A DNA stretch of 64,000 bases, from positions 4,214 through 68,213 of the forward strand of contig JABHXF010000029.1 in the NCBI GenBank assembly GCA_018657385.1, read 5' to 3'. The translations under genes were made by a program, and so were the position numbers. Below the pieces are notes generated by a model. That model saw nothing but the letters and a program-made list of their open reading frames with translations, had not been told where the DNA came from and searched no databases. This document shows positions 4,878 to 24,909 of the stretch, piece after piece; positions within the stretch are counted from its first letter, which is position 1; each line of letters starts with the position of its first letter. This stretch comes from Candidatus Woesearchaeota archaeon (GTDB lineage Archaea; Nanobdellota; Nanobdellia; Woesearchaeales; DSVV01).

Positions 4878-4910
4878 TTTTATTTTGTCCTTTTTTTATG
4901 GGATTGTCGC

Positions 4911-5000
4911 AAAAAACAACAACAACAATGGCACAGACGAACTTTCTTTCAGAAAGTCCTACTCGCCTAATGGCTCGCCTGGCCTATGTTGTTGTTTTTT
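4911..5000. ncRNA. Conserved GC-rich structured element, copy A of 3 (unknown family)
   Basis: Shares the blocks GGCAC[A/G]GACG, TCCTACTCGCCT and GGCTCGCC[T/C]GGCC with 12654-12738 and 24477-24573. These are enclosed by an AACAACAA/TTGTTGTT outer stem with a flanking A-run and T-run. The internal hairpin is ACTTTC/GAAAGT. The strand is unresolved. Confidence 0.5.
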
Positions 5001-5026
5001 GCTTTTTTTATTATGACCTTATTTTA

Positions 5027-5362
5027 TTATTCTTTGTCTATTACTATCATTTCTTCAGCTGCATCTAATTTTACAATGGCTCCTTCTTTGATCTCTTCTA
5101 AGCCATTAATTCCTACAATGCATGGGATGTTTAATTCTCTTGCTAATATTGATGCATGGCATGTTAACCCACCATTTTTTGATAAAATAGCAGCTGCTTG
5201 TTTTAGTTTTATTACATCTTGGGTCATGTGTTCATTTAATATTACAACATCTTTTTTAGTGTAAACTTTATTTGAATCATATTTAGTTATTTTACCTTCA
5301 ACTTCTCCTGGACATGCACATGTTCCTGTTAATAGTATTTTGTTTGTTATTTTTTCTTCCAT
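5027..5362 (-). CDS. Stand-alone PEP-utilising-enzyme mobile (phosphohistidine swivel) domain protein
   Basis: GGLTCHASILARELNIPCIVG fits the PEP-utiliser phosphohistidine signature (G-G-x-T-x-H-x-S-I-[LV]-x-R). At 111 aa there is no flanking kinase or PEP-binding domain. Confidence 0.8.
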   Translation of the reverse strand: MEEKITNKILLTGTCACPGEVEGKITKYDSNKVYTKKDVVILNEHMTQDVIKLKQAAAILSKNGGLTCHASILARELNIPCIVGINGLEEIKEGAIVKLDAAEEMIVIDKE

Positions 5363-5364
5363 TT

Positions 5365-5712
5365 TTATTCCTCTATCTTATGAACTTCTCCAGTTGTTCC
5401 ACACATTTCAATAACATCTCCATCTTTTAGTATTTCAGTAATTGGTTTTCCTGTTTCAATACATTTTGTTGAAACAATACATGGGATTCCTAATTCTCTG
5501 CTAACAATTGATGGATGTGATGTTAATCCTCCAACATTACATATTATTCCAGCTGAATTATTCATCACAATAACCATTGTTGGATCAGTTAGATGTGTTA
5601 CAAGGATATCATTTTCATTGAATTTGTCGTGGTCATCCATATTTCTAATTATCTTAACCTTTCCACATACTTTTCCCTGACTAACTCCATGTCCTTTAGC
5701 TATTTGTTTCAT
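5365..5712 (-). CDS. Stand-alone PEP-utilising-enzyme mobile (phosphohistidine swivel) domain protein, paralogue
   Basis: GGLTSHPSIVSRELGIPCIV carries the same phosphohistidine signature. 115 aa, with a 2-nt gap to the next swivel gene. Confidence 0.8.
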   Translation of the reverse strand: MKQIAKGHGVSQGKVCGKVKIIRNMDDHDKFNENDILVTHLTDPTMVIVMNNSAGIICNVGGLTSHPSIVSRELGIPCIVSTKCIETGKPITEILKDGDVIEMCGTTGEVHKIEE

Positions 5713-7123: not shown

Positions 7124-8248
7124 ATGGATGTTAAAAATGTACTATCTGAATTAGGATTAGGTGAGGGTGAAATTAAAGTATATTTAGCTCTATTAAAGCT
7201 AGGAAGTAGTCCCGTAAGTGCACTTAAAGAAGAAACTAACCTACATAGAACTACAATCTATGATTTTATTGAAAAATTGCTTAACAAAGGTTTAGCAAAT
7301 TATGTTTTAAGAGGTAATGTAAAATATTATCAAGCAACTGATCCTCAAAGATTATCTGATTTTCTTAATGAAAAAGCTTCTAGATTAAATGAAGTAATGC
7401 CAGAATTAGTTAAAATGAGTGAATTTCAAAAAAAAGATCTTAATGTAGAAGTTTTCAAAGGTAAAGAGGGCTATAAAGCTGCATTAGGGTTGGTAATAAA
7501 AGAAGGAAAAAATCTTATTGGTATGGGTTTTGAAGAAGAAAGATTTGAAGAGCTTATTCCAGACACTATGAGATGGTATTTTAGAGAAGCTAAAGAAAAA
7601 GGTATTAAAGAAAGAATATTTGTTAAGGATAGTGCTGAATTTTTTTATCCCCATGATAATATATCTTATAAATCTTTACCTGATGAATATTTTAATCCAA
7701 ACCAAACAATGACTTTTGGTGACTATGTTGCACTTCATATTTGGGATCCGTTCTCTACAATTGTTATTAAGAATAAGGATTTAGCGAATTCATATAGGAA
7801 ATGGTTTGAAATGTTGTGGGAACAAAATGTAAAAATAATCAAGGGTAATGATAGTCTTAAAAGAATGTTTGATTCACACTTACGTGATTTAAAAAAAGGA
7901 GATGATATGATTGTTTTTGGTAGTTCTAAACATATTCCCAAATATTTTAATAAATATTTTAATGATTATATTCCTAACTTAGCTAATAATGGAGTTAAAC
8001 CCAAAATTATTTTTGATGAAGATGCACATTCGCTGATAAATGCATGTAAAGATAATAATTGGGTAGTTAAGACCTTACCAAGAAAATATATTTCACCAAT
8101 AGAAGTAAACCTTTGGAAAAATAAAGCTGCAATTGTGATTTGGAAAGAAGAACCAGTTGCTTTTATTATTGAAGACAAAGAAGTGGCAGATGGTTTTAAA
8201 GCTTTCTTTGAGATACAATGGGATATTGCTAAGAAAGTGAAAAAATAG
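7124..8248 (+). CDS. TrmB-family transcriptional regulator
   Basis: N-terminal winged HTH: LGLGEGEIKVYLALLKLGSSPVSALKEETNLHRTTIYDFIEKLLNKGL, with a long TrmB-like C-terminal domain. ATG at 7124 is preferred over 7085 because the TATA at 7061-7070 would otherwise lie inside the ORF. Confidence 0.8.
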   Translation: MDVKNVLSELGLGEGEIKVYLALLKLGSSPVSALKEETNLHRTTIYDFIEKLLNKGLANYVLRGNVKYYQATDPQRLSDFLNEKASRLNEVMPELVKMSEFQKKDLNVEVFKGKEGYKAALGLVIKEGKNLIGMGFEEERFEELIPDTMRWYFREAKEKGIKERIFVKDSAEFFYPHDNISYKSLPDEYFNPNQTMTFGDYVALHIWDPFSTIVIKNKDLANSYRKWFEMLWEQNVKIIKGNDSLKRMFDSHLRDLKKGDDMIVFGSSKHIPKYFNKYFNDYIPNLANNGVKPKIIFDEDAHSLINACKDNNWVVKTLPRKYISPIEVNLWKNKAAIVIWKEEPVAFIIEDKEVADGFKAFFEIQWDIAKKVKK

Positions 8249-8384
8249 TTTTGAGTAATGAGTCTTGGGTTATGGGTGGGTAATTAGTAAATAGTTATGA
8301 GTATCACAGTAGTTGCTCAGAACTCATTTTACTCACAACTAAATCCTATAACTGATTTCCCCACAACCAACTCATTACTCAAAA
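8249..8384 (+). repeat. About 135-nt imperfect long inverted repeat (hairpin) downstream of the TrmB-like gene
   Basis: Perfect 15-bp outer arms: TTTTGAGTAATGAGT (8249-8263) pairs with ACTCATTACTCAAAA (8370-8384). The inner G/T-rich left arm pairs with the C/A-rich right arm if G.U pairs are allowed on the plus strand. Confidence 0.5.
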
Positions 8385-8432
8385 CCTAAAACTTAGATAA
8401 TCTTTATAAATAATCAATCCTATCTAACTAAA

Positions 8433-9844: not shown

Positions 9845-10125
9845 AGTGGACAGGCATGCCCAGTAATGGCCATATAAACGAGCCTGAGGTTTAACCCTCA
9901 TCCATTCTCAGTAAGGCTACCTCACAAGCACCTATGTAAAAACTTAATGCTGCTTCCGTCAGGATCTGACATAGTTCGTAAACACACAAGTCCTATGAGA
10001 CCAAACATCATGGGCAAGATAAGGACCTCCTGCCTGAATATATGACGCTTACCAAGCTTCAACTCCTGCATAAGTCCGTTACAGGTAACAGGTGAGGACT
10101 AACCACCCAGTCTAGCCTATCCAAG
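9845..10125 (-). ncRNA. ffs: Signal recognition particle RNA (archaeal 7S/SRP RNA)
   Basis: An ORF-free region richer in GC than its surroundings. The minus strand reads GUCAGAUCC-UGAC-GGAAGCAGC, matching the conserved helix-8 motif (compare E. coli 4.5S GUCAGGUCC-GGAA-GGAAGCAGC). The 5' GGAUAGGC (10115-10122) pairs with the 3' GCCUGUCC (9848-9855). At about 280 nt with an upstream TATA, it fits an archaeal SRP RNA. The ends are approximate. Confidence 0.75.
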
Positions 10126-10152: not shown

Positions 10153-10191
10153 GGTTACGCCAGGATTTGGTGTGTTATGTATGAAAAATTT

Positions 10192-10297
10192 AACAACAAT
10201 GGCGTTGATGCGACGGGGGTTGCCCCCTTCGGGGTGTCGCATAAGGCATTTTTCAGAAGGAAAAATGACTGTCAACAGCCATTATTGTTGTTGTTGG
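10192..10297. ncRNA. Structured element D: AACAACAATGGC/GCCATTATTGTTGTT outer stem enclosing two hairpins (unknown family)
   Basis: Same outer-stem sequence as elements A-C but a different interior. Interior pairings: GTTGA/TCAAC; a GC hairpin TGCGAC (10209-14) with GTCGCA (10236-41) containing GGGGG-TTG-CCCCC-TTCG-GGGG; and an AU hairpin CATTTTTC-AGAAG-GAAAAATG. Confidence 0.4.
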
Positions 10298-10368
10298 ATT
10301 CTTCCTTAACTATTGTGACATAATTTCCATAAGATTTTTAAATTAATAACATAGTAATTACTATTAAA

Positions 10369-12601: not shown

Positions 12602-12653
12602 TGTAATTTTCCTTAATCTTTGTTTAAAACTTACTGTTTTGATGATGTAATCG

Positions 12654-12738
12654 TTAAAAACAACAACAATGGCACGGACGGACATTTGCAAGCAAATATC
12701 CTACTCGCCTTCGGCTCGCCCGGCCTTGTTGTTTTTAA
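12654..12738. ncRNA. Conserved GC-rich structured element, copy B of 3
   Basis: TTAAAAACAACAACAATGGCACGGACGGAC-ATTTGCAAGCAAAT-ATCCTACTCGCCTTCGGCTCGCCCGGCCTTGTTGTTTTTAA. It sits in the 147-nt gap between nop5 and fibrillarin. Confidence 0.5.
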
Positions 12739-12748
12739 CTCTTTATTA

Positions 12749-24398: not shown

Positions 24399-24476
24399 TT
24401 TTTACTTCTTTTTTACTAGGTCCAGTGGATGTGTTTCTCATGAATTTTTTAATTTAATAAAAGAGACTATATTAAT

Positions 24477-24573
24477 AAAAAAATAATAACAACATAGGCA
24501 CGGACGAACTTTTCTCATTTCATTCGAAAAATCCTACTCGCCTATCGGCTCGCCCGGCCATGTTATTATTTTT
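24477..24573. ncRNA. Conserved GC-rich structured element, copy C of 3
   Basis: AAAAATAATAACAACATAGGCACGGACGAAC-TTTTCTCATTTCATTCGAAAA-ATCCTACTCGCCTATCGGCTCGCCCGGCCATGTTATTATTTTT, in the convergent gap after cysS. Confidence 0.5.
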
Positions 24574-24702
24574 ACTAAAAAACAAATAAAATTATCTAAA
24601 TACAATTCCTTATTCACGTCGAGAAATAATTAGAATTTATTATTTTTAATTAAGAAAAAATAAATAAAAAAGTAAAAAAAAATAAAAAACAAAGTAAAGA
24701 AA

Positions 24703-24909
24703 TTATCTTTTCTTTTTCTTAACAACTTTCTTCTTTGCTTTCTTCTTAACGACTTTTTTCTTCTTAACTGCTTTTTTCTTTGTTGCTTTTTTCTTCTTGC
24801 CGCCTCTATTCATCTGTACCATTGAGATATCTCCTTTCTTATCTACAAAGTAAAGATAGCCGTTTTTTTTCTTAACTCCTACTTTTGCTACTTTAATTAT
24901 TTTTGCCAT
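24703..24909 (-). CDS. Small basic protein with a poly-lysine tail (possible nucleic-acid-binding protein)
   Basis: 68 aa: MAKIIKVAKVGVKKKNGYLYFVDKKGDISMVQMNRGG followed by a K/V/A-rich tail. A GGGGTG Shine-Dalgarno-like motif (24918-24923) lies 8 nt upstream of the ATG, and a TATA-like TTTAAATAG lies about 45 nt upstream. Confidence 0.6.
   Translation of the reverse strand: MAKIIKVAKVGVKKKNGYLYFVDKKGDISMVQMNRGGKKKKATKKKAVKKKKVVKKKAKKKVVKKKKR

Follow-up and report, generated by a model that had tools for sequence, protein, structure and literature searches.

The window analysed here, a 64,000-nucleotide stretch of a Candidatus Woesearchaeota genome and an archaeal sequence of 28% GC, carries members of a family of non-coding elements, each a long hairpin of ~90-125 nt with an asymmetric, invariant, GC-rich three-way junction at its tip. 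The family is a previously undescribed repeat of Woesearchaeota (DPANN archaea), in which dense small repeats are already known, and we found no description of the family, its fold or its strand in the literature searched. Giving it about even weight, we favour the reading that these are non-autonomous dispersed repeats, propagated or homogenised via a single-stranded form, whose symmetric arms and U-runs make a two-way hairpin when transcribed. This reading is based on the many copies, their presence in all intergenic classes and in both orientations, the lack of a promoter, their turnover between relatives, their truncated ends, and a strand-specific fold whose interior is conserved. Both the mechanism of spread and any role for the host are inferred.

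A three-way junction conserved on one strand

A sequence-only reading of the window had pointed to conserved blocks at three loci, here called copies A, B and C, and all of these blocks are present at the coordinates given. TCCTACTCGCC occurs exactly three times in the window, exact matches to GGCTCGCCYGGCC and GGCACRGACGRAC are confined to the three loci, and GGCTCGCCYGGCC at ≤3 mismatches has seven matches in the window against a shuffle mean of 0.5. In plus-strand view, the AACAAC/GTTGTT outer stem is present, with an A-run at the left and a T-run at the right; in copy A, it is a perfect inverted repeat of 16 bp (4909-4924 with 4987-5002). Shuffle comparisons of folding give z of -4.7 to -7.4 for copies A, B and C. 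The helices that had been drawn correspond to this outer stem and to the helices that we call P1, P2 (the mini-hairpin) and P3 (the variable hairpin).

On the window minus strand, the parts follow in the order 5' arm, 2-nt linker, P1, GA, P2, GAGUA, P3, P1 3' strand, 3-nt linker and 3' arm, with P3 running directly into the P1 3' strand. P1 is GGC-CRGGC with GUCYG-U-GCC, P2 is GCC-loop-GGC, and P3 is GGAY...RUCC, giving the core consensus GGCCRGGC-GA-[P2]-GAGUA-[GGA..P3..UCC]-GUCYGUGCC. What had been described as an invariant junction, TCCTACTC, is on this strand GAGUA together with the first three pairs of P3. The invariant or near-invariant parts are GGCC-R-G-(G/A)-(C/U)-GA, the first P2 pair, GA-(G/A)-UA, GGA/UCC at the P3 base and GUC-Y-GUGCC, and the core is invariant across genomes of 30-43% GC. 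The parts free to vary are both arms, the P2 tip, P3 above its base and the 3-nt linker that follows GUGCC on its 3' side. The arms, 12-17 bp long and bounded by the A-run and T-run, are rich in A at the 5' side and in U at the 3' side; their sequence is free, yet they are always complementary. P2 ranges from 3 bp, and its tip from a 3-nt loop, up to insertions of 15-40 nt (L013/L014, L069, L010), and P3 from a 4-bp GGAC-UUUA-GUCC form up to a ~65-nt insertion in L026.

We built a covariance model, R1, from 30 sequences, which recovers copies missed by the pattern scan and brings the total to 46 distinct copies from the window, Woesearchaeota genomes and metagenomes, with up to four in a locus of 11-13 kb. 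Canonical pairs fill 97.8% of the pair cells in the alignment of these 46 sequences, an alignment fitted to R1; column shuffles give 84.8%, and slid partners ~45%. Changes on both sides occur in 22 of 32 pairs against 10.5 in shuffles, counts that do not represent independent events, as many copies are paralogues from few subfamilies. The covariation score is 0.376 against 0.142, and none of 500 shuffles attains any of these measures. This abundant covariation, for which the sequence-only reading had proposed a covariance model as the check, is seen in all four helices. The outer stem has compensatory pairs at 12 of 12 positions, and the arms GCGGUGAUGAC, GGCCGCCACC and AAUCCAGUCAG of L002, L010 and L069 are wholly unlike in sequence with pairing kept. 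In P1, the R-Y pair is GC in 24 copies and AU in 22 (A4935-T4980 in copy A, G12676-C12721 and G24502-C24555 in the others, as had been described), and there is also a change from C-G to U-A. P2 occurs as GCC/GGC, GGC/GCC, GGU/ACC and ACC/GGU, and P3 shows compensatory change at five of nine pairs. The three-way junction is thus strongly supported. Within it, the third letter of GAGUA changes in step with the base at the last position of P1: with the P1 base given first, 36 copies have C/G, nine U/A and one U/G, and none has C/A. Judged from these letters, the last-P1 C may pair with that third-letter G of GAGUA and extend P2 via tandem sheared G.A, the alternative being pairing with the P1 3' strand; similarly, the junction GA and the GA of GAGUA can form a tandem sheared G.A pairing on P2.

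The sequence-only reading had left the strand undecided, and we assign the fold to the window minus strand. With RNAalifold, the three window copies together reach -34.8 kcal/mol on the minus strand, compared with -23.8 on the plus, and the minimum free energies, minus and plus, are -44.3 and -40.2 kcal/mol for copy A, -40.4 and -30.9 for copy B, and -34.9 and -24.3 for copy C. A wobble pair on one strand is an A.C mismatch on the opposite strand, and read on the minus strand the whole family contains 89 G.U cells, spread over 14 columns, compared with 7 A.C cells, spread over 6. The A4937/C4978 mismatch noted earlier on the plus strand is present as described, and the invariant-wobble position of P1 is G.U in 34 of the 46 copies and A-U in 12. 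In the subfamily with the A-U pair, the neighbouring C-G becomes U.G, so that pairing survives on the minus strand alone. The copy-B position that had seemed to favour the plus strand base pairs in P3 instead (GGA/UCC in copy B, UUC in copies A and C). Since the fold is conserved on one strand only, selection acts on a single-stranded molecule of minus polarity, for which RNA is the simplest candidate and single-stranded DNA (ssDNA), also tolerant of G.T, the second possibility.

Family size and range

R1 scores 95-100 bits for copies A, B and C. Over the 64 kb, nothing else exceeds ~14 bits apart from a fourth member at 10181-10304 (29.7 bits) and the reverse strands of the copies (16-20 bits). 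What had been taken for a family of three is therefore larger even within the window, and its copies are dispersed, dozens to a genome, at a density of ~1 copy per 3-20 kb in the contigs seen. A pattern scan of GTDB returned 24 stretches, including nine true copies in AT-rich archaeal metagenome-assembled genomes (MAGs) and 15 chance matches in GC-rich or unrelated bacteria. Eight of the true copies are in Woesearchaeota MAGs (five contigs of SI074_bin25 and three other MAGs), and one is in a 32%-GC MAG labelled Methanosarcinales. The same kind of scan in metagenomes returned 51 stretches, mostly from Saanich Inlet-type samples; Saanich Inlet contributes most of the copies, with contigs Ga0257125_1000133, Ga0233437_1000163 and Ga0257124_1000195 as examples.

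Two family scans of IMG/VR gave zero and two pattern matches, both of the latter rejected by the covariance model, and an IMG/VR scan with the core of the fourth member gave none; BLAST searches against plasmids and phages were also without matches. The sequence-only reading had called the element a structured GC-rich junction of no known class, and Rfam 15 agrees: copy A, the fourth member and a copy of the GAU/GAAUA subfamily have no match at the gathering threshold or at E≤10, where merely chance hairpin and microRNA-type matches far under threshold appear. A published 2024 census of MITEs (miniature transposable elements with inverted repeats) includes one Woesearchaea genome with 105 MITEs per Mb, which were not characterised (PMC11602168).

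Dispersal and turnover

We examined the open reading frame (ORF) context of 47 copies using simple ORF calls. Eleven copies are sense to both neighbours, nine antisense, 11 in convergent and nine in divergent intergenic regions, a spread of orientation and context that is as expected from random intergenic insertion. The earlier statement that every copy sits immediately 3' of a gene on the minus strand holds in the window but not across the family, which is no 3'-UTR element. Gaps between element and coding sequence are as small as -1 to 30 nt, and several copies start 1-20 nt past a stop codon and end 23-30 nt ahead of the next start, a spacing so tight that it leaves no room for a promoter of the element's own. 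Upstream of the arms, neither strand shows a positional signal that would indicate a promoter at a fixed distance. A peptide product was rejected: reading frames through the element lack conservation, and the ATG arises from a linker that varies. Most copies have a stable hairpin with a U-run directly after it on both strands (GCAAAAAAC...GTTTTTTGC and similar), which, with the symmetric arms, would fit the bidirectional terminator suggested earlier; the bacterial-type terminator scan is blind to loops of >8 nt.

L013 and L014, from different Woesearchaeota MAGs, have as their sole common sequence a 199-nt block of 90% identity in unrelated gene contexts, which contains the element and a second, outer inverted repeat. 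Seven full copies have, 5-12 nt upstream, a truncated piece consisting of the 5' arm and GGCC(RGG). Many copies (L026, L033, L037, L041, L057) adjoin tandem duplications of the 3' arm and flank or micro- and minisatellites; the repeats seen there include (GTTT)n, (ATT)n, (CTTTT)n and five units of 26 nt. In the ~450 kb of loci that we fetched, there are no AACAAC hairpins without a core, indicating that the arms travel together with the core and rejecting a pre-existing hairpin as the insertion target. All of these loci were chosen as carriers of the element, which makes a search for empty sites among them uninformative. Copies are single except for one tail-to-tail pair (L031, 1583-1684 and 1694-1785), and mixed orientations are found within a few kb in L027 and L037.

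Turnover can be followed at the spacer between nop5 and flpA, the fibrillarin gene, where copy B is located. Using fibrillarin homologues, we compared ten nop5-flpA regions and found four spacers occupied, three of them in the sense orientation. The window spacer is 147 nt long with the element in sense. L082, whose fibrillarin is 82% identical to that of the window, has a 165-nt spacer with an element of the same subfamily, also in sense. L081 (68%) has two arm-flanked elements, one of them a large-P2 relative in sense. In L078 (68%), the element is inverted (2262-2359) and is separated from fibrillarin by an extra gene, a Lactamase_B gene; this inversion suggests flipping via the inverted arms or an independent insertion. 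In contrast, the spacer of L079, with a fibrillarin 79% identical to that of the window and 87% to that of L082, is 1 nt long. L084 (63%) has 56 nt and no element. L087-L090 (57-70%) likewise contain no element, their two genes overlapping or being separated by 1 nt, 48 nt or two HAD-family genes.

The copies in the window and L082 have the same orientation and a homologous 3' flank (GATyACATCAT). Two histories would account for them: a single old insertion, maintained under constraint and cleanly lost from L079, or paralogues that repeatedly replaced or converted the resident copy. In L081, the arm-flanked unit at 1625-1740 has arms AAAAATGCCAACAAT/ATTGTTGGCATTTTT and three hairpins, and stands in tandem with the family member in the spacer; a called ORF of 76 aa (1630-1860) runs from this neighbouring hairpin unit into the family member.

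Members and neighbouring features in the window

Copy A occupies 4909-5002 on the minus strand and scores 95.5 bits, with an internal loop (4925-4929/4985-4986) between its outer stem and the core (4930-4984). The P1 5' strand (RNA GGCCAGGC, 4977-4984) pairs with the 3' strand (RNA GUCUGUGCC, 4930-4938) in 8 bp with a bulged U and the invariant G.U. The junction GA 5' of P2 (4975-4976) is invariant in all 46 copies. It is followed by P2 (RNA GCC-AUUA-GGC, 4965-4974), the junction GAGUA (4960-4964; GAAUA in the subfamily), and P3 (RNA GGACUUUC-UGAAA-GAAAGUUC, 4939-4959), whose base, GGA/UYC, is conserved, with the remainder varying freely. Copy A lies between an ORF with a phosphoenolpyruvate (PEP)-utiliser domain and an ORF of 700 aa. 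On the minus strand, two adjacent stand-alone ORFs at 5027-5362 and 5365-5712 (111 and 115 aa) each consist solely of a PEP-utilising-enzyme mobile domain.

Copy B, also on the minus strand, occupies 12653-12739 in the nop5-fibrillarin spacer (99.4 bits), with arms at 12653-12666/12726-12739, P1 at 12671-12679/12718-12725, GA at 12716-12717, P2 at 12707-12715, GAGUA at 12702-12706 and P3 at 12680-12701. The fibrillarin beside it is 100% identical to a protein that NCBI assigns to a Candidatus Woesearchaeota archaeon. Copy C occupies 24480-24575 on the same strand (100.5 bits), with arms at about 24480-24495/24560-24575, P1 at 24497-24505/24552-24559, GA at 24550-24551, P2 at 24540-24549, GAGUA at 24535-24539 and P3 at 24506-24534. 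Its neighbours are the convergent cysS and an ORF of 68 aa (24703-24909). An A/T-rich imperfect inverted repeat at 24652-24780, with 50-nt arms that are 72% complementary, overlaps this ORF, rightward of copy C in plus-strand view and upstream of it in the minus sense. The genes flanking the window copies have no common theme.

The fourth member (10181-10304, plus strand) is diverged, with an R1 E-value of 2.8e-5 and a fold z of -4.1. It lies ~60 nt upstream of the archaeal signal recognition particle (SRP) RNA gene (9848-10122), the sole Rfam match of the window, and is not present at the syntenic SRP-adjacent site of L078. It retains the arms, the GGC/GCC clamp with a 1-nt 3' bulge and the three-way junction; P1 is entirely re-paired (GUUGAU/GUCAAC), P2 is enlarged, and the junction GA..GAGUA is lost. 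Its P2, GCGAC-GGGGGUUGCCCCCUUCGGGGU-GUCGC, can form two mutually exclusive hairpins, GGGGG/CCCCC or CCCC-UUCG-GGGG. An intermediate form, with a perfect P1 and the same P2 insert as the fourth member, is found at L081:1780-1903 (67.8 bits). No other cores between family-type arms were found besides these two.

Other repeats are located nearby. An intergenic unit at 8248-8385 has perfect inverted arms of 16 bp (GTTTTGAGTAATGAGT/ACTCATTACTCAAAAC) around 106 nt, with z = -5.9 and a sequence unrelated to the family. A second conserved motif, TCAyGrGAAACAyrTCCnCyGGACCTAGTAAAAAA, is at ~24400-24445 (minus reading), where it immediately follows the stop codon of cysS at a distance of ~40 nt from copy C; it is also found ~40 nt from copies in other contigs (L026, L037, L046, L057, L071), and it occurs alone too. 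A third repeat, AAAAGAGCC-nnn-GGCCTGTTAAAAAA, is often located 30-60 nt from the element (L025, L027, L032, L034, L037, L041, L046, L062), and in L025 it recurs in tandem every 62 nt.

Proposed mechanism of spread and alternative explanations

If the family is a repeat propagated in single-stranded form, its core would be a module recognised on the single strand by some enzyme or copying process. Only intact folds would be propagated or used as conversion donors, which would keep the core identical while the arms, the P2 tip and P3 drift with compensation. The part relevant to the host would be the symmetric one: a read-through transcript from either direction would end in a strong hairpin and a U-run, possibly acting as a two-way stop or 3'-end stabiliser between packed genes, by analogy with bacterial REP, BOX and Correia elements.

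Overall, the elements look more like REPs or MITEs than like a single-purpose RNA gene. Like MITEs (Correia/NEMIS of Neisseria, enterobacterial ERIC, pneumococcal BOX/RUP), they are short and non-coding, with inverted ends and many intergenic copies in either orientation, and MITEs are likewise co-transcribed with their neighbours and can form long RNA hairpins that affect transcript fate. The sequence-only reading had raised a MITE with target-site duplications as a rival identity. The inverted arms expected of one are present in nearly all copies, although they are not conserved between the lineages of L002, L010 and L069. In MITEs, however, the terminal repeats are conserved, the interior drifts and target-site duplications are found, whereas in this family the interior is invariant and the arms are free. 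No parent insertion sequence with matching ends was found in the ~450 kb of loci or the window. The likeness to REP/BIME/REPIN elements is that of high-copy extragenic palindromes that often lie just downstream of genes, vary in presence between relatives, form imperfect strand-specific hairpins thought to act single-stranded, and have proposed roles in termination and mRNA stability. REP superfamilies are tagged GTAG and CGTC (PMC3733652); P3 in our family is flanked by GUA-G and C-GUC, corresponding to GTAG and CGTC, with ATAG in the subfamily. REPs, in contrast, are simple hairpins of 20-40 nt, usually in inverted dimers, with the tag at one end and with a RAYT gene lying between REPs, and are described from bacteria rather than from DPANN, while the element here is ~100 nt long with a three-way-junction tip and is nearly always single, and no RAYT was found in the ~450 kb. 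A comparison with IS200/IS605-derived elements (ssDNA "peel and paste") fits in the lack of duplications and the strand-specific fold, but not in the inverted arms, the mixed orientations within a few kb or the absence of a transposase from our data.

Several results weigh against propagation as a repeat. There is no insertion-orientation bias pointing to an ssDNA (lagging-strand) mechanism. No transposase-like protein, integrase or reverse transcriptase is found among the scanned window ORFs, and no recurrent ORF family lies beside the copies in the ~450 kb of loci. A crude scan for HUH/Y1 motifs was negative, which is weak evidence as it covers this ~450 kb only. Direct repeats flanking the copies have lengths of 0 (22 copies), 1 (17), 2 (4) and 3 (3), against 27, 15, 2 and 2 in a shifted control; with no target-site duplication above control, a classical cut-and-paste MITE is unsupported. 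Finally, the orthologously placed copies of the window and L082 are identical at 38 of 38 core positions with flanks of 63% identity, and their P3 differs yet is mostly paired, with few mismatches in L082. Such identity reflects either purifying selection on resident copies or gene conversion, and purifying selection would favour a host function of the asymmetric core.

That core perfection between orthologous copies, with P3 and the arms re-paired, is an argument for a host cis-acting RNA, in which the junction in minus-sense mRNA would recruit a protein or RNase, dispersal being secondary. It could set 3' ends, insulate cistrons or tune stoichiometry in operons such as nop5-fibrillarin. Copies inside tight operons must be co-transcribed, the junction nucleotides are invariant across 46 copies from genomes of 30-43% GC, and the occupied nop5-flpA spacers, four of ten, hold the element in sense in three cases. 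We nevertheless consider this explanation unlikely, if the best placed of the alternatives. Among co-directional gene pairs, 11 copies are sense and nine antisense, so that half of the copies would be non-functional, and nine others are in divergent promoter regions. The lack of a theme among the window's flanking genes, the empty nop5-flpA site in most relatives and the truncated remnants beside full copies also speak against it. A more far-reaching proposal, that the junction is a new functional RNA domain, either a new self-processing RNA, cleaving or ligating, that distantly echoes the hammerhead or the recognition module of a novel RNA- or ssDNA-guided mobilisation system in DPANN, appears rather improbable to us.

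Stand-alone small RNA genes, with the arms as a processing stem and the excised junction of 55-60 nt as a mature trans-acting RNA, are improbable. This explanation would account for a closing stem that varies while the structured core inside it is invariant, as in archaeal processing stems (of rRNA and some small RNAs), which likewise place long complementary flanks of free sequence around a conserved structured RNA. It would also account for the U-run after the 3' arm and for the boundary between stem and core, which keeps an internal loop, GGC/GCC clamp and 1-nt bulge even in the fourth member. Inspection of that boundary, however, shows that it is not a bulge-helix-bulge, the archaeal motif in which 4 bp separate two 3-nt bulges on opposite strands: it consists of a 2x3 internal loop (2x5 in copy A), the 3-bp GGC/GCC and the 1-nt bulge. 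Neither the missing promoter at a fixed distance nor the several copies that begin 1-20 nt past a stop codon is expected of independent genes, the element lacks an unpaired "guide" stretch, variable from copy to copy, that could explain why there are dozens of paralogues, and presence varies among close relatives. A tRNA-like element was rejected, as ARAGORN finds no cloverleaf, and no tRNA or tmRNA in the 64-kb window, and the P2 and P3 loops vary in sequence and length. For a derivation from SRP Alu, 5S or RNase P there is no model match, and the likeness of "GAAAGUCCG" to RNase P CR-I sits in the variable P3.

Comparison with known junction folds was similarly negative. Reasoned from the order of helices, an HDV-like fold is incompatible, because no P1 3' strand separates the two hairpins, which adjoin each other; the order or pairing of a loop E/sarcin-ricin motif is not present either. 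A kink-turn or k-junction (an L7Ae site, running 5' to 3' as C helix, 3-nt bulge, tandem G.A/A.G and NC helix) was also rejected: tandem GA can flank P2, but the 3 nt 5' of GA pair with GUC, and this pairing is kept through the changes G.U to A-U and C-G to U.G; on the opposite strand, the order NC-GA-bulge has the reverse polarity. There is a likeness to the type I hammerhead, which shares a three-way junction, a short GC hairpin flanked by tandem G.A (P2 in the place of stem II) and GUC after the third helix. It is clearest in the GAU/GAAUA subfamily, which reads C-R-G-A-U-G-A, P2, G-A-A and, after P3, G-U-C, agreeing with five of six specified CUGANGA positions and also with GAA. A hammerhead-related self-cleaving ribozyme within the repeat, retrozyme- or satellite-like and cleaving after the GUC that follows P3, is still very improbable. 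The main family has C-R-G-G-C-G-A in a strand paired with GUCYG, and position 4 is R covarying with Y, indicating that this purine is paired, unlike hammerhead U4. In the majority subfamily, to which all three window copies belong, A6 and A14 are each replaced by G. Stem III starts with G-C, an A15.1-U16.1 pair could form only if a U were inserted and a G bulged out, and no hammerhead or other ribozyme model of Rfam matches at E≤10. We give equally little credence to a duplex-DNA feature, whether it binds a protein of chromatin, replication or recombination or is a palindrome whose complementarity DNA repair alone maintains, in neither case functioning as a single strand: the symmetric arms, the tandem duplications of arm ends (DNA-level phenomena) and an internal direct repeat, GGCGAG, present twice, would suit it, but neither the excess of G.U over A.C cells nor compensatory changes in the non-palindromic P1, P2 and P3 is expected of a duplex site.

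Implications for Woesearchaeota

DPANN archaea have tiny, tightly packed genomes, and to our knowledge almost nothing is known about their non-coding RNA and mobile DNA. The family described here has a covariation signal as clean as those of curated RNA families, yet no Rfam match. R1 provides a ready annotation marker for Woesearchaeota genomes and helps to avoid miscalled spacer ORFs, such as the 76-aa "gene" of L081. If the elements are selfish repeats, the usual logic of MITEs is reversed, with a conserved interior and free ends, which would point to propagation that reads a folded single strand. If they are a host module, they would be the first cis-acting RNA element of wide occurrence to be described from the Woesearchaeota lineage, positioned inside core operons such as nop5-fibrillarin. 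And if the junction proves to be a new RNA domain, the RNA, rather than a terminal inverted repeat, would define the mobile unit.

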